A stretch of DNA of 64,000 nt from Minisyncoccota bacterium (GTDB taxonomy: Bacteria > Patescibacteriota > Minisyncoccia > Phycocordibacterales > Phycocordibacteraceae). Positions 1,411 through 53,702 of the stretch are shown here, in pieces. Where the stretch lies: positions 64,684 through 128,683 of the forward strand of contig JBAYHD010000002.1 in assembly GCA_041666305.1 (NCBI GenBank), in the 5' to 3' direction. The position numbers were made by a program, and so were the translations under genes. Within the stretch, counting starts at the first letter, position 1. Each line of letters opens with the position of its first letter. The notes under the pieces are model-generated. The model saw only the letters and a program-made list of their open reading frames with translations, was not told the DNA's origin and made no database searches.

Positions 1411-4035
1411 TCAACGTTGTCCTATTGTCGCGTGTCTCCGATGGAACATCCATTTCCCGAACTCGACAGCGACGATATTGAACAGACCGACCGCCGCAAC
1501 ACCGAGGAGCCAGATGGACGGCAACGCCACGGTGTCAAATAGGGATTGAAGGAATGGAACATATATCGCCGCGCCCATAAGAATAACGCCCATGCCTACG
1601 CCGATGACCAGATACGGGTTCGAAAAGAGAGGGTAAGACAGAATGCTTTTCTCCAGACTTCTGAGCGAGAAAGAGAGAAAGAGCGTATACGTCCCGAAGC
1701 TAGCGAAGACAAATGTTCTGACGATGTCTTCTGCGAAGCCGGCTTGCAGAAGCCCCCAGTACAGTATGAACAGCAGTGCGCTTGTCGAGAGACCAATGAA
1801 CAACACGAGAAATTTCATCAATGGATTGAAGAGACCAGCACTCCTATCGCGCGAATGCTGGGACAATCCATCGATATTCTTTTCAAAAGCGAACGCGACT
1901 GCGGGGAAACTGTCTGAGAAGAAATTAACCCATAGGATCTGAAGTGCGTTCAGTGGGAGCACCAAGCCGGTAGCAAGCGCTCCCCCGATCAAAATCAGTT
2001 CATCCGCGACGGACGAGAGAAGATAGACTACCACCTTTCGGATATTGTGCATGATCTGCCGGCCTTCTTCTACTGCGGCGACGATCGTCTCGAAATTGTC
2101 ATCGAGTAACACCAGGTCAGCAACATCGCGAGCCACCTCGGTACCCGACCCCATAGCGATGCCGACATCGGCCTGCTTGATGCTCGGAGCATCGTTCACG
2201 CCGTCGCCGGTCATAGCGACTACTTCTCCCATGCTTTGTAGCACCTGCACGATCCTCATCTTATCGAGCGGTGATATCCGAGACACCACGCGCAGTGTCG
2301 GCAGGCGCTTTTTCAAATCATCGTCCGACAGCGTGCGAAGCTCTCGCGCGTCGAGTGCATTGTCAGCATCGATATGCATGCCTACTTCTCTGGCGATCGC
2401 CTCTGCCGTACCGCGATGATCGCCGGTCAGGATCATCGTCCGTATCCCTGCTTGTGCCACCCGGAGTATCGCTTCTCTGGCGCCAGGCCGGACCGGGTCA
2501 TGGAGCGTCAACAGACCTTCGAAACAAAGCTGGGAGAGCTTCAGGTCCGTAGAAAAGGAGAAGTCCTCTCCCGACTCGACCTCTTTCGTCGCGATGCCCA
2601 TCACCAACTCGCCCGACCGAGCCAGGGCGTCTATTTGTCCCAGTGTCTCCTTTTGTCGTATGGGAGAAAGTGTCGAATGCGCGACGAGGATATCAGGCGC
2701 GCCAAAAAATAGCAGCTCATGCTTCCCGCGACTGCGCACAAGCGACACAGAGAATTTATTGACGGCATTGAACGGCATGGAATTCAGCACTGCTCTGTCT
2801 CGAACGGCAGTATCAACCGTGACGCCGCGGAGCGCTGCGGAGCGCACGAGCGCCATTTCCAACACTCGACCGTTCATGCGCCACTCGAGCGGCTGGTCAT
2901 GAGGGTTTTCTACCAGCACGTTCGTATTCAGGAGCGCCAATTCGAGCAGGCTTTCTTCTCCCCTCTCGCCGGCCGGTAAGATCTTGCTAAGGGTCATCTT
3001 CGCTTGCGTGAGCGTCCCGGTTTTGTCGGTCAGGATCACCGTTGTACTTCCGAGCGCTTCAGCGGCGACCAGTTTCCTCACCACCCCCTTACGGCGGGTC
3101 ATGCGCTGTACGCCGATCGCCAGAATAACCGTCATGGCCACCGGCAGGCCCTCCGGAACCGCCGCGACGGCAATCGCTACCGAGGTGAGGAACATTTCCG
3201 CATACGAGTATCCGAGGGCAATGCCGGCGCCGAAGATGCCCAGCGTCAAGATGCCCAGGAACATTCCGAGTTGTACGCTGAACACCTTTATCTTTTTTTG
3301 CAGTGGTGTTTCTTCTCGATGAGAATCAGCGACTAATGCCGCTATCTTCCCGAGTTCCGTAGAAAACCCCGTCCGGCACACTATCGCCGTGCCGATGCCC
3401 TGAGTGATCAACGTCCCGGCAAATACCATCGAACGCTGATCGCCAAGAGCCGCCGTTCCAGCCGACGGCTCGACAGACTTCGACACCGGCAGAGATTCGC
3501 CCGTAAGAATCGCTTCATCGACCTGAAAATCGTTGATGAATACGAGTCGCGCGTCCGCCGGGACTCGATCGCCCTGCATGAGACGCAGGCAGTCCCCCGG
3601 CACGATGTGTGCGGCATCAATCTCGCGCTCGACACCGTTACGGACCGCCCGAGAACGCTGTTTAAGATAGGTTTTCAGTTCTGCAAGAGCTCTTTCCGCC
3701 TTGTATTCTTGATAGAAACCCAAAGTAATGTTGACAAGGACAGCGGCAAAAATAAACAGCGCATCGCGATAATGGCCGATATAAGACATCACGCCGCCCG
3801 CGAAGAACAGGATTACGATAAGAGGACTTTTACATTGGCCGTATAAAATAGAGAGTCCTGACGATTGCTGAATTCTCTCAATCACATTGAGACCATATTC
3901 CTTCAGTCGCCTCCCTGCTTCTTCTTCTGAAATTCCACGCTCGATATCGGTGTGCAGTTCGGCGGCAATCTTCGGTATGGAATATGACCAGAACGGACGC
4001 TCTCTTGATCCGAAGGATGTGCGCCCGAGCGTCAT
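1411..4035 (-). CDS. P-type cation-transporting ATPase (P2/Ca-Mg type)
   Basis: DKTGTLT phosphorylation motif, TGDGVNDAPS hinge motif, 8-10 TM segments; the ORF-track start at 4107 overlaps the upstream gene, so an internal Met (MTLGRTS) is the likely start. Confidence 0.85.
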   Translation of the reverse strand: MTLGRTSFGSRERPFWSYSIPKIAAELHTDIERGISEEEAGRRLKEYGLNVIERIQQSSGLSILYGQCKSPLIVILFFAGGVMSYIGHYRDALFIFAAVLVNITLGFYQEYKAERALAELKTYLKQRSRAVRNGVEREIDAAHIVPGDCLRLMQGDRVPADARLVFINDFQVDEAILTGESLPVSKSVEPSAGTAALGDQRSMVFAGTLITQGIGTAIVCRTGFSTELGKIAALVADSHREETPLQKKIKVFSVQLGMFLGILTLGIFGAGIALGYSYAEMFLTSVAIAVAAVPEGLPVAMTVILAIGVQRMTRRKGVVRKLVAAEALGSTTVILTDKTGTLTQAKMTLSKILPAGERGEESLLELALLNTNVLVENPHDQPLEWRMNGRVLEMALVRSAALRGVTVDTAVRDRAVLNSMPFNAVNKFSVSLVRSRGKHELLFFGAPDILVAHSTLSPIRQKETLGQIDALARSGELVMGIATKEVESGEDFSFSTDLKLSQLCFEGLLTLHDPVRPGAREAILRVAQAGIRTMILTGDHRGTAEAIAREVGMHIDADNALDARELRTLSDDDLKKRLPTLRVVSRISPLDKMRIVQVLQSMGEVVAMTGDGVNDAPSIKQADVGIAMGSGTEVARDVADLVLLDDNFETIVAAVEEGRQIMHNIRKVVVYLLSSVADELILIGGALATGLVLPLNALQILWVNFFSDSFPAVAFAFEKNIDGLSQHSRDRSAGLFNPLMKFLVLFIGLSTSALLFILYWGLLQAGFAEDIVRTFVFASFGTYTLFLSFSLRSLEKSILSYPLFSNPYLVIGVGMGVILMGAAIYVPFLQSLFDTVALPSIWLLGVAAVGLFNIVAVEFGKWMFHRRHATIGQR

Positions 4036-4595
4036 ACTGCTTGCGCGATAAGGCCGATCAACACAATGCCTGCGAAATTGAAGACAAAAGAAAGAGGGAT
4101 GAACCATGCCGTCTGTATCCTTGAAAAACCAAAGAGGCCGATTCCGAGCTCGTCAGGAAGTGGCGAAGCGATGATCAGACCTCCTACAAACAGCGATACC
4201 CAGCGGAACAGCCGCAGTTTGAAGAGCGCTCGGACTCTTTTACCTACGTGTCGATGCCCGAACAGTTCAAGTAAGTGTCCGGAAAATCTGTCCCGAATGA
4301 ACCGGAAGATGATCAGATCGCCCACGACTGCCCCTGCCGCTCCGAAGAGAGCCGCCGGCAATATCGCTTGCACGTGAGCAATCTCGCCGAATGCGGCTAT
4401 CGCGGGCGCTGTGGTGAAAATCGAGGTGAAGAACAGTCCTGCGATAAAGCTTCCGACAAACCCAAATCCTTCCGTCGACGCCAAAATCTCCACAACGATA
4501 CCTGTCCTGACCATGAATGCGGCGAACACGATACTCACGGCAATGATCAGTATGTCATGCAGAAGAAAACCATTCGTGCGGCTCGTGGCATTCAT
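4032..4595 (-). CDS. multi-pass membrane protein (DedA/TVP38-like, tentative)
   Basis: hydrophobic, 5-6 predicted TM helices, R/K-rich loop; family assignment weak. Confidence 0.5.
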   Translation of the reverse strand: MNATSRTNGFLLHDILIIAVSIVFAAFMVRTGIVVEILASTEGFGFVGSFIAGLFFTSIFTTAPAIAAFGEIAHVQAILPAALFGAAGAVVGDLIIFRFIRDRFSGHLLELFGHRHVGKRVRALFKLRLFRWVSLFVGGLIIASPLPDELGIGLFGFSRIQTAWFIPLSFVFNFAGIVLIGLIAQAV

Positions 4596-13361: not shown

Positions 13362-13679
13362 TTACGAAATGGAGTCGATTTTGACCTTCAAAATCGGTTG
13401 GCGATGGCCTTTGCGCTTAAAGTAACGGCTCTTCGGCTTGTACTTCACCACCTCAATCTTTTTATCCAATCCGGCGAGAACAACGGTGCCCTTGACCTCC
13501 GCGCCCTTGATGAGTGGCGCGCCGATGGTCGTGTCCGAGCCGTTGTCCACGAGGAGCACCTCGCCAAAGACAACCGTGTCACCCTTCTTCAAATCCCCCG
13601 GGAGCTTCTCAATAGCGATAGTGTCGCCTTTTGAGACGACATACTGCTTCCCGCCGGTCTTGATTACGGCCACTTCCAT
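13362..13679 (-). CDS. rplU: 50S ribosomal protein L21
   Basis: 'AVIKTGGKQY.VS.GD.I..EKL' L21 N-terminus. Confidence 0.85.
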   Translation of the reverse strand: MEVAVIKTGGKQYVVSKGDTIAIEKLPGDLKKGDTVVFGEVLLVDNGSDTTIGAPLIKGAEVKGTVVLAGLDKKIEVVKYKPKSRYFKRKGHRQPILKVKIDSIS

Positions 13680-13718
13680 AGTCCGTGCAATATAGCACTT
13701 CTCTATATAAAAGACAAG

Positions 13719-14000
13719 TTATGCGGAATAGAACATTTTATATAAAATATAAGGAACGAGAACAAGGCAAACTAAAATAATCAGTACATTATCAAAAATT
13801 TTACTATTCCTTTCTTTTAATCTTGCTCCACCAGAACCAAAAAGAAACAAAAAGATTAGAAAGAAGTATTCTCCTATGATCGCTCGCCCTGGCAATGGTT
13901 CACCGTGGTCAAGAGCTCTCAATGTCGGAAATATGTAAATGATATAAGTAATTCCAGCGACACCCACAATCATCATTATCCAAGCAATTGTTTTGCGCAT
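13719..14000 (-). CDS. small membrane protein, hypothetical
   Basis: ORF with 2-3 hydrophobic helices; no family recognised. Confidence 0.35.
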   Translation of the reverse strand: MRKTIAWIMMIVGVAGITYIIYIFPTLRALDHGEPLPGRAIIGEYFFLIFLFLFGSGGARLKERNSKIFDNVLIILVCLVLVPYILYKMFYSA

Positions 14001-14018
14001 ATGACCTAAGTATACAAC

Positions 14019-15074
14019 CTATTCTTCAGACGCTAGTGGTTTATCTAACAACTCGGGCTCGATGCCGATTTTGCTCTCGGCGATGCGGTAGACATCCTTG
14101 TCTATTTTGCCGAGCTCTTTATAGCCGGCATTGTAGTGGCTAACCGAGGTCCCAAGCGAGACCCCGAGCTTTTTATAGAACTGTTCATACGAGGCGACAT
14201 GCTTCCCCAGCTCCCCCACTCTCTGCTGTATTTCTACCGCTTTCTTCTCTATTTGAAGCGCCTTGAGCCCCTGCATGACCGTCTGGAGGTAGGCGAGGAA
14301 TGAGGTCGGCGACACGATGATAACTTTATATTTGCTCGACGCGCGCTGAATGAGATTCTCTTCCTCCCCACCGCCGACCTGATTGGTCAAAAGATCGTAA
14401 TAAATGCCCTCGGAAGGAATGAACATAAAAGCGAAGTCCATCGTGTTCTCTTCAGGACGAATGTATTTGGCGGTTTCCGCGATGCGGAGCTTGAGGTCAT
14501 TCACGAACGCTTTTTCAGCAGTGACGCGTTCCGGACTGCCCACTTGGGTGCTCACGAAGCGGTTGTAGTTGTCGAGCGAAAATTTGGAGTCTATTGGAAC
14601 GATTTTGTCGTTCACGAAGACGGCGGCGTCCACTATCTCGCCATTCTTGAAGGGGTACTGGATTTGATACATTCCCGGCGGAAGCACATTCTTGAGTACG
14701 GTTTCCAAATAATACTCGCCGAGGATGCCGCGCTGTTTCGGATTTTTCAGCAAGTCTTGGAGCGACTGGAGCTGTTCGGCAAAGCTCTGCGTCTGACGCC
14801 CAATCTCTTTCACCGAGGTCACCTCCTGTGTGATTTCTTTGATAAGCCGCGAAGATTCGGTGAATTGGCGATGAGAATGTTCCTGCATCGCTCGAGACGA
14901 TTCAGTGACGCGTGCATCGAGAGTTCGTTCAAGATTTTGTAGTTGCTGTTGCAAAAGTACCATCGCACCTCCGTCCTCGGATTTGGCTGTTCGTTTGAGC
15001 GTGTACAGCACCCACGCAAATCCGCCGACGAGAACGATAAGCAAAAGCACTATGAGCAGTGTGGCCGATTCCAT
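14019..15074 (-). CDS. rmuC: DNA recombination protein RmuC
   Basis: N-terminal TM, coiled coil, 'VDAAVFVNDKIVPIDSKFSLDNY' RmuC nuclease-like motif; start trimmed to an internal Met (MESATLL). Confidence 0.75.
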   Translation of the reverse strand: MESATLLIVLLLIVLVGGFAWVLYTLKRTAKSEDGGAMVLLQQQLQNLERTLDARVTESSRAMQEHSHRQFTESSRLIKEITQEVTSVKEIGRQTQSFAEQLQSLQDLLKNPKQRGILGEYYLETVLKNVLPPGMYQIQYPFKNGEIVDAAVFVNDKIVPIDSKFSLDNYNRFVSTQVGSPERVTAEKAFVNDLKLRIAETAKYIRPEENTMDFAFMFIPSEGIYYDLLTNQVGGGEEENLIQRASSKYKVIIVSPTSFLAYLQTVMQGLKALQIEKKAVEIQQRVGELGKHVASYEQFYKKLGVSLGTSVSHYNAGYKELGKIDKDVYRIAESKIGIEPELLDKPLASEE

Positions 15075-19883: not shown

Positions 19884-20651
19884 TTATCGCACAGATGCCT
19901 CAAGTTTTTGCTTTAATTCTTCTATTTCATCCTTCAATTCCACCATCTTCAATTCGCGCCCTATCATTAATTCGTTGGCCCGTTCGAGATCGGTGACTTT
20001 TTCCTGCAATTCTCGTTCCCTCCTCTTGCGTTCAGTAATGTCTCTTGACACGCCGATAACACCCGTGATCTCTCCGGTATCACTCCGTATCGGTGTCACT
20101 ATTTCAAAGCAATATTCATTCACCGACCCCTCTTTGGTGTGGTGTACTTCTATAGAAACAGTCTTTCCATTCAGCGCCGAGTTGAACGCTTCTTTAAATT
20201 CAGTCTGGCTTTCAGGAGCGAGAGCTTCAATGAAGTTATGCCGCTTGGCATCCTCAACATCCTTGTAATGATGCTCCGCGAGCCCTCCTTTGTTTATGAA
20301 CGAGAGATTTCCTTTTGTGTCAAAAAGTTTGATGCAGTCGGGCGAGTTTTGCGCTAGTGCGGTGAACAATACATTTTCAACGGACAACACTTTATTTCTT
20401 TCAGATTCTTCCATATTTTTCCGGACCAGCGGCTTGAAAGCGAAGTAGTATAAGATCGGATACTCAATGAGCGTTAGCAACAGTGCATCAATGAAATTTT
20501 CCAGTGGTTGTATCGGCGGCAGATAGAACTGTATCAAAAACATAATGCCGAACTCCACAACGAAAATACTGACCAAAAGGACTATCAATAATCTGACAGG
20601 ATCAGAACTGAAAGGGACTCGTATCTTTTTTTCTTTTGGCGCCTCGTCCAT
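19884..20651 (-). CDS. membrane-anchored PAS-domain sensor protein without an output domain
   Basis: two TM helices, PAS fold, C-terminal coiled coil. Confidence 0.65.
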   Translation of the reverse strand: MDEAPKEKKIRVPFSSDPVRLLIVLLVSIFVVEFGIMFLIQFYLPPIQPLENFIDALLLTLIEYPILYYFAFKPLVRKNMEESERNKVLSVENVLFTALAQNSPDCIKLFDTKGNLSFINKGGLAEHHYKDVEDAKRHNFIEALAPESQTEFKEAFNSALNGKTVSIEVHHTKEGSVNEYCFEIVTPIRSDTGEITGVIGVSRDITERKRRERELQEKVTDLERANELMIGRELKMVELKDEIEELKQKLEASVR

Positions 20652-20665
20652 AGTGCGGGAGGCGC

Positions 20666-21037
20666 TTACTTGGCCTGCAGAAGAACGTTCTTTATTTTCT
20701 CAATGATCTCGTTGATAGGATGCTCTGACTTCACATAATAGTCGGCGGCGCCGAGCTGAAGCGAGCGTTTGATGTCGCTGTCTTCACCCAAATTGGAGAC
20801 GACGATGACCGGTATCACTTTCAGCTCCTCATCCTTCTTCAGCGCCTCAAGAACCTCAAAGCCGTTTTTCTTAGGTAACAGAAGGTCAAGTACTATGACA
20901 TCGGGCTTGAAACTTGCGGTAGAAACGAGGGCAGCTTCGCCGTCGCTCGCTACCTGAACTTCATAGCCGGATTTTTCCAATTTCTCTTGAAAAACTTTTG
21001 CGAGCACCTCCTCGTCTTCAACAATTAGGACTTTCAT
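20666..21037 (-). CDS. single-domain response regulator (receiver only)
   Basis: 'KVLIVEDEE', 'VIVLDLLLP', 'VSNLG..SD'. Confidence 0.8.
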   Translation of the reverse strand: MKVLIVEDEEVLAKVFQEKLEKSGYEVQVASDGEAALVSTASFKPDVIVLDLLLPKKNGFEVLEALKKDEELKVIPVIVVSNLGEDSDIKRSLQLGAADYYVKSEHPINEIIEKIKNVLLQAK

Positions 21038-46007: not shown

Positions 46008-46685
46008 CTATACCAAACCTTTCGGAATGACGAGCGATAGGTGTTCCAGGATCATGCGCACGGGCGCGCTACGGTCGTAGAGATGTCCACGCAGAACTTG
46101 AATATCTCGTAACAATTCCGCAATGTGGGACTTCGTAAGTCCCACATTGCGATAAGCTGCTGCTTCGATACCATTCACGATACTGATCGCTTCGTCACGC
46201 AATTCCCGCCGTTCTTCCTCGTCCTTCCCGCTCGTGAGTTTCTTTATCATCGCACTCCGCTTCTCCTTACTCGCCTTCATAAACTCCTCCGCCGCTTCAG
46301 AAATTAAGGGTTTACGAAATCCATAATTCGTATCAAGGATTTGGACGCGGGAGCGGAGGGTTGGAAGAAGACCGCCGAGAGATGGCAGTATGAAAAACAG
46401 ATACGTCCCAGCAGGCGGTTCTTCAAAAAGTTTTAAGAGCGCATTCTGTGCTTCGTGATACGCACGAATCGCCGCGATGATGACGACCTTTGTTGTGCCG
46501 GCAAATGCAGCGCCCGCGGCGAGCTCAGACACTCGTCGCGCATCCTCGACCGAGAACAGACCATACCGCATCACGGCAACATCGGGATTGCCCTGTATCT
46601 TCATCTGCAACTCCTTCTCCACCCAAGCCTGCGCGGCCATAACACCCTCCTCGGCCTCCGCCTCTATCACAAACGCATGGTGCAT
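46008..46685 (-). CDS. holB: DNA polymerase III delta'-like subunit (short, degenerate P-loop)
   Basis: 'NALLKLFEEPP' clamp-loader box, 'LPTLRSRVQIL' sensor-2-like motif. Confidence 0.6.
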   Translation of the reverse strand: MHHAFVIEAEAEEGVMAAQAWVEKELQMKIQGNPDVAVMRYGLFSVEDARRVSELAAGAAFAGTTKVVIIAAIRAYHEAQNALLKLFEEPPAGTYLFFILPSLGGLLPTLRSRVQILDTNYGFRKPLISEAAEEFMKASKEKRSAMIKKLTSGKDEEERRELRDEAISIVNGIEAAAYRNVGLTKSHIAELLRDIQVLRGHLYDRSAPVRMILEHLSLVIPKGLV

Positions 46686-46717
46686 AACAAGCAGTATACC
46701 CCTGTTATAGTGTTGGT

Positions 46718-47071
46718 ATGAATATACCCATTCCGCTTAGAGAACGTATTGCCGATATTGTGATATACGTTTTTGCAATTATTCCTATTGTGGGAATCGC
46801 CATGGGAGGGTTTATATGCACCCCTGAGGGATTTGGCGTACATAGCTGCGTTATGGGGCCCGCAGTAGATTCGATTATGAATTTTTTCTTGAGCTACGGT
46901 TTCTTGATTGTTTTTGGCGGATTCTTTGTTTGGATACCTGTGATAATTGTTGCGTCAGTGATTTCGATTAAATCACGAAGAAAAGCTGGACGTAAAATTA
47001 TTTATTCACCTCCCTTTATACTGCTCTATCTGTTTGTAGTGAGTGTGCTGCAGGGTATTATCGCTGATTAA
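46718..47071 (+). CDS. small polytopic membrane protein, hypothetical (locally AT-rich)
   Basis: 117-aa ORF with three hydrophobic helices; lower GC than surroundings. Confidence 0.4.
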   Translation: MNIPIPLRERIADIVIYVFAIIPIVGIAMGGFICTPEGFGVHSCVMGPAVDSIMNFFLSYGFLIVFGGFFVWIPVIIVASVISIKSRRKAGRKIIYSPPFILLYLFVVSVLQGIIAD

Positions 47072-47074
47072 AAA

Positions 47075-48100
47075 TTACTGCTTCGCGAGGATGCTTTTCT
47101 GATACGTATCCAAATGCTTCAGCGCGATGCCGGTGCCGCGCGCAACACAAAAATAGGGATCTTGACCCAATTTCGCGACGACACCAGTGCGGCGATACAC
47201 GAGCTCGGGCATCTGCCGGAGCTGGCTCGTGCCGCCGGTCAGGATGATGCCGTTGTCGATGATGTCGGCGGCGAGTTCGGGCGGCGTGTCCTGGAGCACC
47301 TTGCGGATCGCCTGCGTCATTTCGCGCAATTCACGCGCCATCGCGGTTACGAGGTCGTTGGTGGAAAGGTCTACCGTGCGCGGGAGCCCGCTCATCAGAT
47401 CGCGCCCTTTCACCGGCATGGTGAGCTCCTCGTTCAGCGGAACTGCGGCGCCGATTCGTATTTTAATTTCTTCCGCGGTCTTATCGCCGATGGAAAGATT
47501 ATGCTGTTTTTTCACATGATCTATAACCGCGCGATCCAAGCGGTCGCCCGCGCACTTCACCGAGGTGGACGCGACGATGCCGCCGAGAGAGATCACCGCC
47601 ACGTCTATCGTGCCGCCACCAATGTCCGCGACCATGCGCCCCATCGGTTCGTGAATAGGAATACCCGCGCCGATGGCGGCAAGTATCGGCTCCTTCACCA
47701 CATACGCATTCTTTGCGCCGGCTTTGAGCGCGGCCTCAATGACCGCGCGCTTCTCGGTGCTCGTGACACCCGCGGGAACCGAGACCAGCACCGTCGGCTT
47801 GAACGGATTTCGTCCGAGCGCTTTTTTCATAAAATAGCGGAGCATCGCTTCGGTCACTCGATAATCCGCAATGACGCCGTCTTTCATCGGGCGGTACGCA
47901 ATGATGTCGTCGGGCGTGCGGCCGATCATTTGCTTAGCCTCCGCGCCGATGGCGAGAATTTTATTGCCGCCGAATTTGCCGTGCGCCTTCCCCACCGCGA
48001 CGACCGACGGCTCATTGATGACCACTCCCTTGCCTGGCACAAAAACCAATACGTTGGTGGTCCCGAGGTCTATGCCGAGTTTGGGAGAAAAGAAGGACAT
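47075..48100 (-). CDS. second MreB/Mbl-like actin homologue
   Basis: 'LGIDLGTTNVLVFV', 'DIGGGTIDVAV'; the ORF-track N-terminal extension overlaps murA and is discarded. Confidence 0.8.
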   Translation of the reverse strand: MSFFSPKLGIDLGTTNVLVFVPGKGVVINEPSVVAVGKAHGKFGGNKILAIGAEAKQMIGRTPDDIIAYRPMKDGVIADYRVTEAMLRYFMKKALGRNPFKPTVLVSVPAGVTSTEKRAVIEAALKAGAKNAYVVKEPILAAIGAGIPIHEPMGRMVADIGGGTIDVAVISLGGIVASTSVKCAGDRLDRAVIDHVKKQHNLSIGDKTAEEIKIRIGAAVPLNEELTMPVKGRDLMSGLPRTVDLSTNDLVTAMARELREMTQAIRKVLQDTPPELAADIIDNGIILTGGTSQLRQMPELVYRRTGVVAKLGQDPYFCVARGTGIALKHLDTYQKSILAKQ

Positions 48101-52169: not shown

Positions 52170-52199
52170 GCTTTTAGGATAGCATTCTTTGCTCCGCGG

Positions 52200-52373
52200 G
52201 TAAGCGTTTCTTGCACGCTTTCCCGCGTTCGCCTCGCTCGAAAACAGAAGCCGTGGGTGCCCCGCTTGTAAGCGTTGCTTGCACGCTTTCCCGCGTTCGC
52301 CTCGCTCGAAAACAGAAGCCGTGGGTGCCCCGCTTGTAAGCGTTGCTTGCACGCTTTCCCGCGTTCGCCTCGG
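52200..52373. repeat. 68-bp tandem direct repeat, 2.6 copies (1 mismatch)
   Basis: unit gtaagcgttgcttgcacgctttcccgcgttcgcctcgctcgaaaacagaagccgtgggtgccccgctt. Confidence 0.9.
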
Positions 52374-52380
52374 ATAAAAA

Positions 52381-52411
52381 GAAACCGCCCTCAGAAGGGC
52401 GTTTCTTTTTG
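52381..52411. terminator. bidirectional rho-independent terminator downstream of tRNA-Asn
   Basis: gaaaccgccct-caga-agggcgtttc flanked by A-run and T-run. Confidence 0.7.
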
Positions 52412-52419
52412 ATCCTCGG

Positions 52420-52714
52420 CTCCGCGGGTAGGATTCGAACCTACGACCAACTCGTTACATCTTGTCCGCTATTACTAACGGGATGGACTATATCATCACC
52501 GGTTCTCGGTGCGAGGCGCTTCGACCTCTCGGTCTACTCCCTTGCGGGATAGTCTCTGAACCTTTCTCGAAACATTTCGGGACTTGGCTGCTGATTGCCC
52601 GCGTCTTTCTCGTTTGGGTTTCCAGCAATTCACCTCGTTCTTCATTCCCGAATTCCTTCGGGAAGCTGCGTTTCTTGGCCACAGCGAGCCGCTCTACCAC
52701 TGAGCTACCGCGGA
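52420..52714 (-). tRNA. tRNA-Asn (anticodon GUU) interrupted by a group I intron in the anticodon loop
   Basis: exons 52681..52714 and 52420..52457 join to UCCGCGGUAGCUCAGUGGUAGAGCGGCUCGCUGU|UAACGAGUUGGUCGUAGGUUCGAAUCCUACCCGCGGAG, a complete cloverleaf that parallels E. coli tRNA-Asn and has discriminator G. Confidence 0.8.
52458..52680 (-). ncRNA. group I intron (223 nt, ORF-less)
   Basis: conserved elements in order: P 'aauugcuggaaa', Q 'aaucagcag', R 'guucagagacua', S 'auauagucc'; 5' exon ends in U pairing with an internal guide GCAGC (P1); terminal omega-G. Confidence 0.8.
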
Positions 52715-52766
52715 AGGTAAACACCGATTAATGTAACCGGCTTATGATCAGTATACACAGACATAT

Positions 52767-53147
52767 GTGGAAAACAACATTAACACTAAGTGTTATACTG
52801 TGAGCGTGGAGAAAATTTGCAAGATTCATGGATTAACAAAGTTCTTCCCTAGAACAGAAGGGTGGTATCGCTGTGGAAAGTGCGCCTCGGTAGCCGTCAT
52901 ACAAAATCGCAGACGTAAAAAAGAAAAATTGGTCGAATTATTTGGTGGGAAGTGTTCAATCTGTGGATATAGGAGGTATGTGGGGTCATTAGATTTTCAT
53001 CATATGGATCCGAAAAACAAATCCTTTGCTCTCAGTGTCAAAGGTCTGTGCTATTCATGGGGTTCAATTCTCAAGGAAGCTGAAAAGTGTGTTTTAGTTT
53101 GTAAGAATTGTCATGCAGAAATTGAAGGCGGCATTACAAAGTTATAG
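52767..53147 (+). CDS. free-standing HNH endonuclease (AT-rich, likely homing-endonuclease-like)
   Basis: Zn-ribbon 'CGKC...CSICG', 'LDFHHMDPKNK', 'CKNCH' HNH motif; ~38% GC against a ~57% background. Confidence 0.7.
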   Translation: MENNINTKCYTVSVEKICKIHGLTKFFPRTEGWYRCGKCASVAVIQNRRRKKEKLVELFGGKCSICGYRRYVGSLDFHHMDPKNKSFALSVKGLCYSWGSILKEAEKCVLVCKNCHAEIEGGITKL

Positions 53148-53156
53148 TATAAAAAC

Positions 53157-53702
53157 ATGGCCTTCACTCTCACCAGTCCTGCATTTGAAAACAACGGGAT
53201 GATACCCGCGAAATACACGTGCGACGGCAACCGCGAACTTTCGCCGCCCCTCATCATTTCCGACGTACCCGAGATGGCGAAATCACTCGTGCTCATCATG
53301 GACGATCCAGACATTCCAGAAGTGAAAAAAGAGGAATTCGGAATTTCTGCGTTTGACCATTGGACTCTTTTCAACATTCCTCCGGAAACACGCGAGATAC
53401 CCGAAGGAGGAACGGTGGGAACACCGGGAGCCACCACTGGAGGCGAGTTGCGGTACACGGGTCCCTGTCCACCGCCGAGATTTTCAAGGAGTGCAACGAC
53501 TATGAAAATCCAAGTGGGGTCATGTACTCATGAGCCCCCGCCGGAGCACGAACCAAGCGAACATCGCTATATCTTCAAGCTTTATGCGCTCATTGCTCCG
53601 CTTGAACTTCCGACCGGCGCAAGAAAAGAACAGGTGCTTGACGCACTTGCTCCGCTTTTGCTGGCGGAAACGGAACTCATCGGCCGTTATTCCAGAAAAT
53701 AA
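53157..53702 (+). CDS. PEBP/YbhB-YbcL family protein
   Basis: 'FENNGMIPAKYTCDGNRELSPPL', 'LIMDDPDIP', 'HRYIFKLYAL'. Confidence 0.7.
   Translation: MAFTLTSPAFENNGMIPAKYTCDGNRELSPPLIISDVPEMAKSLVLIMDDPDIPEVKKEEFGISAFDHWTLFNIPPETREIPEGGTVGTPGATTGGELRYTGPCPPPRFSRSATTMKIQVGSCTHEPPPEHEPSEHRYIFKLYALIAPLELPTGARKEQVLDALAPLLLAETELIGRYSRK

Follow-up and report, generated by a model that had tools for sequence, protein, structure and literature searches.

A free-standing HNH endonuclease gene beside an intron-bearing tRNA-Asn gene in Minisyncoccota and its putative partnership with an ORF-less group I intron

In a 64,000-nt stretch of DNA from a Minisyncoccota bacterium (assembly GCA_041666305.1, contig JBAYHD010000002.1, positions 64,684 to 128,683 of the forward strand; 'the window' below, taken at its full length), we identified a free-standing gene for a small HNH (His-Me finger) protein. 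It is placed divergently from a tRNA-Asn(GUU) gene that is split in its anticodon by a group I intron without an open reading frame (ORF). The coupling of the two genes had been proposed in an earlier note made from the letters of this DNA; we found the pairing again in dozens of genomes. Comparison of ~160 related loci favours, with moderate confidence, the reading that the protein is a homing-type endonuclease coupled to tRNA-Asn(GUU) and working with the ORF-less intron, i.e. by collaborative or trans homing.

A scan selected by the HNH gene, with one genome per species, gave 80 loci; 50 of them carry a full-length copy of the form present in the window (the long form). These 50 orthologues show 61-85% identity and all come from Paceibacteria/Parcubacteria-type metagenome-assembled genomes (MAGs); across the compared Paceibacteria loci, orthologue identities run from 62% to 96%. 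The tRNA and the intron were searched for with nhmmer (using the tRNA-plus-intron sequence of the window), Rfam and ARAGORN. A tRNA-Asn gene lies within ~130 bp of the HNH gene in 47 of the 48 assessable long-form loci, and nhmmer detected the same intron in 41 of these 47. The single exception is locus L038; there (4001..4333) the long-form gene, together with the promoter dyad described below, has 4 kb of flank on each side and no detectable tRNA-Asn or intron. The gene is divergent and upstream of tRNA-Asn, as in the window, in ~35 loci; it is upstream on the same strand in L031, L036, L037, L039 and L040, and downstream in L029. Long-form genes accompany an intron-less tRNA-Asn in L010, L015, L020, L027, L044 and L050.

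A second sample avoided ascertainment by the HNH gene: metagenome contigs were picked by the 5' exon of the tRNA alone, with at least 500 bp on both sides. Among intron-bearing loci the HNH gene was present in 11 and absent from 11; among intron-less loci it was present in 2 and absent from 20 (odds ratio 10; Fisher p = 0.007, which is indicative only as the loci are phylogenetically non-independent). The long-form copies with a fully readable tRNA are all at intron-bearing tRNAs (6/6; a seventh, L153, runs off its contig), compared with 11/31 for loci without the HNH gene. All four combinations of intron and HNH gene were found, and empty alleles also occur in the same synteny, e.g. in L092. 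The gene is thus dispensable, patchy in its distribution and enriched where the intron is present.

A related short form (~105 aa) has a basic N-terminal helix in place of a zinc ribbon. Its core is 47-61% identical to that of the long form in the intron-encoded copies and 40-61% identical when all short-form loci are counted. Loop L1 of the very same intron encodes it in 16 loci, where its stop codon and the 3' strand of P1 overlap; free-standing copies by tRNA-Asn occur in some Woesebacteria-type genomes (L051, L055, L064 and L071). In L053 and the other loci of class C, the 3' ends of the short-form ORFs overlap the P1 3' strand and P2 of the intron.

The flanking genes (PBP, Grx for glutaredoxin, YggU, HPF and Fmt) show that these arrangements are alternative states of a single chromosomal site. 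With the long form placed outside the intron, the order is tRNA / HNH / (PBP) / Grx / YggU / HPF / Fmt in L001, L002, L004 and L049. The short form inside the intron is followed by PBP / Grx / YggU / HPF / Fmt in L053 and by YggU / HPF / Fmt in L107 and L149. The long form beside an intron-less tRNA has the order tRNA / HNH / YggU / HPF / Fmt in L010 and L015, and the site with neither intron nor HNH gene reads Fmt / YggU / Grx / tRNA in L092. The neighbours are 60-80% identical to those of the window in the loci of the HNH-bearing states (~70% for all five syntenic flanking genes of L053); L092 is more distant (48-55%). The earlier note had proposed a check of related genomes for presence or absence of both elements; both proved to be polymorphic at homologous, and even syntenic, loci.

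We place the protein in the His-Me finger superfamily on the basis of matches to PHROG profiles, structure matches and its intron-encoded relatives. The description of the gene in the earlier note as a free-standing HNH endonuclease gene next to the intron-bearing tRNA-Asn is supported. The PHROG HNH families matched are phrog_2255 (E = 4.5e-22) and phrog_3106 (E = 2.8e-21). An AlphaFold2 model built from 28 family members (pLDDT 93.4) predicts a strand at residues 62-66 (LDFHH), a strand at 95-99 and a helix at 100-107 (KNCHAEIE), which together give the beta-beta-alpha-metal fold. At E <= 1e-3, Foldseek matched this model to 40 phage proteins in BFVD (top TM-score 0.77), almost all annotated as HNH endonucleases. 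The top matches among PDB structures are all HNH domains (Cap5, T4 endonuclease VII, Gme nickase and Cas9) but weak (E >= 0.13). A sequence-profile search of the PDB with the family found nothing relevant, and a search of NCBIfam with the window protein gave no meaningful match. The Pfam profile PF01844 is matched at E <= 0.1 by 18 of the 28 family members; the intron-encoded short forms, at 21.7 bits, just exceed its gathering score across the whole domain. Where the short form ends its motif with His (NCHREIH), the long form has Glu. Catalytic competence is plausible.

In the alignment of the 28 family sequences (numbered as in the 113-aa protein), D63, F64, H65, H66, C50, C53, C99, N101, C102 and H103 are invariant, and the N-terminal C5, H8, C23 and C26 are invariant or nearly so. 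The motifs DFHH...CKNCH and the two CxxC pairs, pointed out earlier, are thus present and conserved throughout. The pattern of conserved Cys and His residues suggests two zinc sites, an N-terminal ribbon (C5/H8/C23/C26) and a site embedded in the HNH domain (C50/C53/C99/C102); the stretch 'CGKC...CSICG', which had been taken for one ribbon, is therefore probably not a single site.

The 126-aa ORF at 52767..53147 named in the earlier note exists on the plus strand. The JGI call of the same gene is 115 aa long and starts at 52800. Most likely, the true start is the GTG at 52806: the homologues are nearly all ~113 aa long with N-termini aligned at this codon, and a conserved promoter element lies inside the 5' end of the 126-aa ORF. 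With this start the distance between the HNH gene and the 5' end of the tRNA (52714) becomes 91 bp instead of the ~50 bp estimated before. The coding sequence occupies positions 125-467 bp from the insertion site of the intron, near enough for co-conversion.

Read together, the tRNA exons (Table 1) give a tRNA that has all four arms (acceptor, D, anticodon and T); its anticodon loop is CU-GUU-AA. The joined exons are base-for-base identical to the intron-less tRNA-Asn(GTT) of L010, which fixes the splice junction as CUGU|UAA. ARAGORN with default settings called no tRNA at this locus; its intron mode gave a tRNA-Thr(agt) with a wrong intron position, a call that we rejected in favour of the comparison with the intron-less allele. 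The Rfam group I intron model matches at 52465..52732 on the minus strand (78.5 bits; gathering score 50), and the same intron scores above the gathering threshold in 14 of 17 other loci tested. In P1, exon CUGU pairs with intron GCAG (52669..52666); all 21 sequences keep the U.G pair at the 5' splice site, and the omega G is at 52458, before UAACGAG. The consensus fold of 21 related loci recovers the tRNA stems, P1, P2, P4/P5, P6 and P7. Compensatory changes occur in 29 of 48 pairs, including P2, P4/P5 and P6, and the acceptor, D and anticodon stems covary; both ribozyme and tRNA are therefore under structural selection. These features define a group I intron of the tRNA anticodon-loop type, with self-splicing predicted. 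Subgroup IC3 is known from other tRNA introns.

Table 1. Features of the tRNA-Asn/HNH locus (coordinates of the window)
Feature	Coordinates	Strand	Remarks
HNH (His-Me finger) endonuclease gene, long free-standing form	52806..53147	+	113 aa + stop, GTG start
Dyad TTAACAC-N3-GTGTTAT (52780..52796) with overlapping extended -10-like TGtTATACT (52791..52799)	52780..52799	+	conserved element
Putative -10 box of the tRNA promoter (TATACT on the minus strand)	52750..52755	-	conserved motif inside the 91-bp divergent spacer
tRNA-Asn(GUU) 5' exon, positions 1-35, ending ...CUGU	52681..52714	-	same letters as nt 1-34 of L010's intron-less tRNA-Asn
Group I intron, 223 nt, without ORF	52458..52680	-	between U35 and U36 of the anticodon; Rfam RF00028
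tRNA-Asn 3' exon (UAACGAG...GGAG)	52420..52457	-	discriminator G at 52420; CCA not fully encoded
GC-rich hairpin with T-runs on both strands, terminator-like, just past the tRNA 3' end	52386..52401		consensus scan

The 5' side of the HNH gene carries a conserved dyad. In the long-form loci its consensus is CTTAACAC-N3-GTGTTATA(A/C)T, located 6-8 nt 5' of the start codon in all gene arrangements; with up to two mismatches it is present in 47 of 49 long-form loci, the arms being nearly invariant and the central 3 nt free. The dyad is unique within the window, and in the exon-selected sample it was found solely with the long-form gene or its remnant. We infer that the element is a putative HNH promoter (extended -10, TGnTATAAT) overlapped by a perfect dyad, as would be expected of an operator on a nearly leaderless gene. 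The gap of 6 nt between the -10-like box and the start codon in the window suggests a leaderless transcript, and the mRNA is probably leaderless or nearly so. The window gene starts with GTG, and ATG stands at this position in L122, its closest relative, and in most orthologues; expression from a GTG on a leaderless mRNA may be very low. On the tRNA side, the motif ATTATACA (plus strand) is conserved at the putative -10 position in most spacers of class A, and a consensus promoter scan did not call the box at 52750..52755. The intron-encoded short forms (L053 3914..4267 and other loci of class C) have an extended -10-like box of their own, TGGTATACT, in loop L1, ~10 nt before the ATG.

Each arm of the dyad contains TGTTA(A), and the anticodon-loop DNA reads C-TGT|TAA, precisely at the site of the intron. 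A match of at least 6 nt spanning the intron site is expected in 0.7-1.5% of random dyads; the match seen here (6-7 nt) was noticed post hoc. As a lead, this likeness suggests that one short sequence might be bound by the protein both at its target and at its own promoter. The endonuclease I-TevI is said to bind an operator that overlaps its own promoter and so to repress itself; similarly, the dyad over the HNH promoter contains the TGTTAA that the intron splits, which hints at an operator mimicking the homing site.

The low GC content of the gene pointed out in the earlier note is real, 39.4% for the 126-aa ORF and 39.8% for the 113-aa coding sequence, with the flanks at ~52-53% rather than 57% (window, 53.0%). 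GC at third codon positions (GC3) is 37%, against ~60% in the long ORFs of the window, and just 0.4% of 381-nt windows in the 64 kb are equally AT-rich. The suggestion that this composition hints at arrival of the gene did not hold up. The GC content of the HNH gene is below that of the host in 43 of 43 long-form loci (mean difference -8.8 points; GC3, -15 points), a trait of the family, and it tracks host GC (slope 0.73, r = 0.80). As dS also equals that of the neighbours, low GC was rejected as a mark of recent transfer; in most lineages the gene appears to have been resident and vertically inherited for a long time.

The HNH gene is subject to strong purifying selection, with dN/dS of 0.03-0.12 across nine close pairs (those of the intron-less clade among them) and 0.04 between the window and L122. 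In the pair L002/L049 the dS of the HNH gene is 0.58, and that of the neighbours 0.63-0.73 (Grx, YggU and Fmt) and 1.29 (HPF); in the pair L010/L015 the values are 1.73 and 1.4-1.8. The dN of the HNH gene is equal to or below that of the neighbours in syntenic pairs. Equal dS with equal or lower dN points to vertical inheritance with the locus in these lineages. We also considered discordance between the identities of the HNH gene and its flanks as a signal of transfer. The nucleotide identity of the HNH gene is always the higher one; dS values indicate constraint as the cause, save for the pair of the window and L122.

In this last pair the common block is tRNA, intron and HNH gene, and the rest of the L122 contig is unrelated. 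The HNH genes are 95.6% identical in amino acids and 91.6% in nucleotides (dS 0.50); the PBP fragment abutting the HNH gene is truncated and 69% identical (dS 1.36, over 67 codons only). In L122 (2283..2537) the PEBP gene beside the HNH gene is cut to 84 aa and followed by unrelated genes; the block in common stops close to where the HNH gene ends. The likely explanation for this pair is that the tRNA-intron-HNH cassette moved laterally or recombined, and its similarity, limited to the cassette, is the only hint in the sequences of cleavage followed by gene conversion.

Decay was observed as well. Frameshifted, stop-containing or truncated copies are present in L034, L042, L048, L050 and L080 (assembly errors in MAGs may explain some), and disrupted copies make up ~10%. 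In L119 only the promoter dyad and the first codons remain 5' of the first tRNA copy, which indicates deletion of the HNH gene there. The same contig (11300..14650) has two inverted intron-bearing tRNA-Asn copies (11459, plus strand; 13128, minus strand) that flank ~1.4 kb beside a 477-aa serine-recombinase-like ORF; an integrative element may also use tRNA-Asn as its attachment site there.

A neighbour-joining tree splits the long and short forms cleanly and groups the intron-less L010, L015 and L020 as a monophyletic clade, consistent with a single loss of the intron with the HNH gene kept. In a neighbour-joining tree of the core that includes phage sequences (71 residues, without support values), the long and short clades do not form an exclusive pair; tRNA-Asn may have been colonised twice independently. 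Joint arrival of intron and HNH gene, suggested in the earlier note, is not supported by this tree.

The wider family extends to phages. At E <= 1e-3 the family profile matched 28,216 clusters, a number that falls to 190 at E <= 1e-30; relatives on viral contigs are 35-54% identical. A tRNA gene, typically part of an array, is found no more than 150 bp from the HNH gene in 25 of 80 viral loci, so residence beside tRNA genes is a habit of the family. No copy of the tRNA-Asn intron was found in the viral contigs. The closest annotated sequence relatives also lie among tRNA genes: gp120 of the Bacteroides crAss-like phage DAC15 (48.6% identical over residues 3-113, zinc ribbon included) is located between tRNA-Ala and tRNA-Ile, and a protein of the FelixO1-like Salmonella phage Sl26 (47.8% identical over residues 24-113) between tRNA-Met and tRNA-Ile. 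Both differ from the window gene in being uncharacterised, in the tRNAs concerned (Ile, Met, Ala) and in having no intron; the proteins from the Candidate Phyla Radiation (CPR) form a distinct clade, >60% identical, tied to tRNA-Asn.

In the mechanism that we propose, the HNH lineage and the ORF-less intron would form a two-part mobile or persistent unit at tRNA-Asn(GUU). The 113-aa protein, an N-terminal zinc ribbon with an HNH core, would be made at a low, probably self-limited level from the dyad-overlapped promoter and would recognise tRNA-Asn gene DNA, most likely around TGT|TAA of the anticodon loop. Alleles without the intron and/or the nuclease gene would be nicked or cut, and repair from the carrier chromosome would copy the nuclease gene along with the intron. 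The carrier's own intron, by splitting the likely recognition sequence, would protect the essential tRNA gene, and self-splicing would keep the tRNA functional.

In this proposal, nuclease activity, DNA target, immunity conferred by the intron, gene conversion and autoregulation are predicted. Several observations weigh against it. The window protein scores 14.1 bits with PF01844, the match covering the first half of the model, so the Pfam check suggested in the earlier note stayed below the gathering score of 21.4; the Asn that usually precedes the second CxxC is an invariant Lys (K94), a departure from the textbook motif. The Fisher test overstates the significance of the association with the intron, given the shared ancestry of the loci. 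L010, L015 and L020 keep an intact HNH gene (dN/dS 0.03-0.05, dS ~2) beside an intron-less tRNA-Asn, which challenges the targeting of intron-less alleles by the nuclease; with the tRNA of L010 equal to the spliced tRNA of the window, either the intron is not the sole protection or its site is not the target. Long vertical descent under constraint, as the substitution rates suggest, would be unexpected for a purely selfish element fixed in a lineage. Both difficulties could be resolved by tight autorepression, by a target slightly off the insertion site (as for MobE) or by domestication.

Domestication is itself an explanation, to which we give a low probability: the protein would be a nuclease or DNA-binding protein derived from a homing endonuclease and now maintained by selection on the host, and it might cut incoming intron-less tRNA-Asn DNA (e.g. 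phage tRNA arrays), enforce retention of the intron or regulate the divergent tRNA promoter region. It would account for dN/dS of 0.03-0.12 where dS is saturated, for dN no higher than that of Fmt, HPF or YggU together with the signs of vertical descent, for preservation of the gene in the clade that lacks the intron, and for identities of 66-72% across Paceibacteria where Fmt shows 33-42%; the conserved dyad operator suggests controlled expression. A domesticated function fits poorly with the absence of the gene from roughly two in three tRNA-Asn loci that share the exon, close syntenic relatives included, with ~10% of copies being pseudogenes or deleted, and with its variable position and orientation relative to the tRNA. 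The 11 intron-bearing loci without the gene imply that splicing does not need it. A defence-system reading was dropped, as PADLOC gave weak similarity (best E ~1e-3, to the HNH protein PtuB of Septu) and no partner gene. Alternatively, the gene could be an independent free-standing homing endonuclease gene of the family found in phage tRNA arrays, using tRNA-Asn or its flank, with the intron a separate element and neither collaboration nor immunity; we consider this unlikely. It has in its favour that phage relatives adjoin many different intron-less tRNA genes, that the CPR long and short forms each make a clade of their own among phage sequences in a core tree, that HNH genes accompany an intron-less tRNA-Asn in L010, L015, L020, L027, L044, L050, L064, L109 and L157, and that the genome encoding SegB carries SegB cleavage sites (PMC2330249). 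Yet the intron is present in 41/47 long-form loci and in every readable case of the exon-selected sample, compared with 35% of HNH-less loci; the related short form sits inside exactly this intron; and the tree in question is built from 71 residues without support values.

Two further explanations fare worse. Some homing endonucleases evolved maturase activity, and the physical linkage of the gene to the intron would suit a splicing cofactor. Such a role is very improbable here because half of the intron-bearing loci lack the HNH gene; in addition, the gene is kept where the intron is absent, and the intron core is complete with strong covariation, as is typical of small self-splicing tRNA introns. 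To our knowledge, known maturases are LAGLIDADG proteins, not HNH proteins. The probability that the ORF arose by chance, or encodes a generic zinc-finger housekeeping protein placed near the tRNA by accident, is negligible: the absence of a significant Pfam or NCBIfam match for the window protein would fit it, and it is refuted by 146 close homologues, strong purifying selection, PHROG and structure matches to HNH nucleases and adjacency to the tRNA repeated in ~70 loci.

Collaborative homing, the reading that we prefer, has its nearest parallel in cyanophage S-PM2, where the free-standing F-CphI acts with an ORF-less group I intron of psbA (Zeng, Bonocora and Shub 2009; PMC2790892, PMC6083498). 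The window likewise has a free-standing nuclease gene next to a gene with an endonuclease-less group I intron, and we propose a like logic for it, with the intron mobilised by a nuclease whose site it interrupts. F-CphI is of the Endo VII type and belongs to a phage protein-coding gene, whereas the window protein is an HNH with an extra zinc ribbon at a chromosomal tRNA gene of CPR bacteria, with cleavage at the intron site predicted; also unlike the F-CphI system, one CPR clade keeps the nuclease without the intron. The free-standing HNH endonuclease MobE of phage T4 mobilises in trans the nrdB intron with its defunct I-TevIII (PMC2790892). There, too, an HNH endonuclease gene adjoins a group I intron that is non-autonomous, and co-conversion is dependent on how near the two lie. 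The two proteins are not closely related in sequence; MobE is a phage enzyme backed by nicking and inheritance data, and the activity of the window protein is predicted.

Among intron-encoded enzymes, I-Ssp6803I from the group I intron in tRNA-fMet of Synechocystis is specific for this tRNA's anticodon region (Bonocora and Shub 2001, cited in PMC3984707). It resembles our system as an endonuclease tied to a group I intron in a bacterial tRNA anticodon loop, and the short forms (e.g. in L053) are its direct analogue; the enzyme family, the tRNA and the insertion position are different, and the window copy lies outside the intron. I-Ssp6803I is reportedly a PD-(D/E)xK enzyme. Free-standing homing endonuclease genes among tRNA genes are also known in phages. 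SegB (GIY-YIG) cuts tRNA genes from within the T4 tRNA cluster, with its preferred site lying within a tRNA-Asn gene and a conserved tRNA motif being recognised; sites are present in the carrier genome as well, with expression held low; the HNH enzymes F-TflI, -II and -IV are located in the tRNA region of T5 (PMC2330249). SegB differs in fold, and both SegB and the F-Tfl enzymes are found without an intron and in phages rather than in cellular chromosomes. A 2020 preprint extended the settings of tRNA introns to 21, many in metagenomic phyla, and does not discuss endonucleases (10.1101/2020.01.27.920355). Our literature search found no description of an HNH/tRNA-Asn pairing in CPR bacteria. 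For endonucleases encoded in tRNA introns there is one classic precedent, I-Ssp6803I, and free-standing partnerships are known from phages.

Some other features of the window and of related contigs deserve a record. Relative to its syntenic relatives (L004, L049 and L053), the block of tRNA, HNH and PBP genes is inverted in the window. At one junction of the inverted block, the stretch from the glutaredoxin gene to the tRNA terminator contains a tandem repeat (52200..52372) in which a 68-bp unit occurs 2.5 times with 99% identity. The '150-aa' glutaredoxin ORF runs through this repeat, hence the gene probably starts near 52172 instead. The PEBP/YbhB-family gene immediately downstream of the HNH gene (53157..53702) has an insertion of ~25 aa (RFSRSATTMKIQVGSCTHEPPPEHEPSE) directly before the conserved HRY motif, and its Pfam match is in two stretches. 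Other AT-rich patches of the window (13541..14162, 20221..20742 and 46641..47132) were considered as mobile-element genes and rejected: their products are small hydrophobic membrane proteins or the membrane-spanning portion of a PAS-domain sensor protein, not nucleases. On the Yanofskybacteria-type contig L035 (656..776) a LOOT RNA (RF03000, 73 bits) is located ~3 kb from the HNH gene.

As a bolder idea, which we rate as improbable though worth stating, the nuclease and the intron could be long-lived chromosomal partners instead of a transient parasite. The HNH protein would read TGT|TAA as its cleavage target in intron-less tRNA-Asn genes and the inverted dyad (TTAACAC-N3-GTGTTA) as its autorepressor site, with the intron as the 'immunity' half of an addiction- or restriction-like module that could cut incoming phage tRNA arrays; the states that coexist at one syntenic site, namely empty, nuclease only, intron only, nuclease beside the intron and nuclease within it, would then be a natural series for the entry of endonucleases into introns.

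The tRNA-Asn and HNH genes are easily left unannotated in CPR genomes, because tRNA finders miss or mis-call the split tRNA and the protein falls below the Pfam cut-off. The known cases of a free-standing endonuclease joined with an ORF-less intron are a few phage protein-coding genes; here the pair would reside in cellular chromosomes of a large uncultured radiation, at a tRNA gene. With nucleases beside and inside the same intron, and every intermediate state at a syntenic locus in many natural replicates, the site offers a system for the question of how endonuclease genes invade introns (the Bonocora-Shub pathway). It is equally suited to asking why a supposedly selfish nuclease would stay under purifying selection as strong as that of housekeeping genes.

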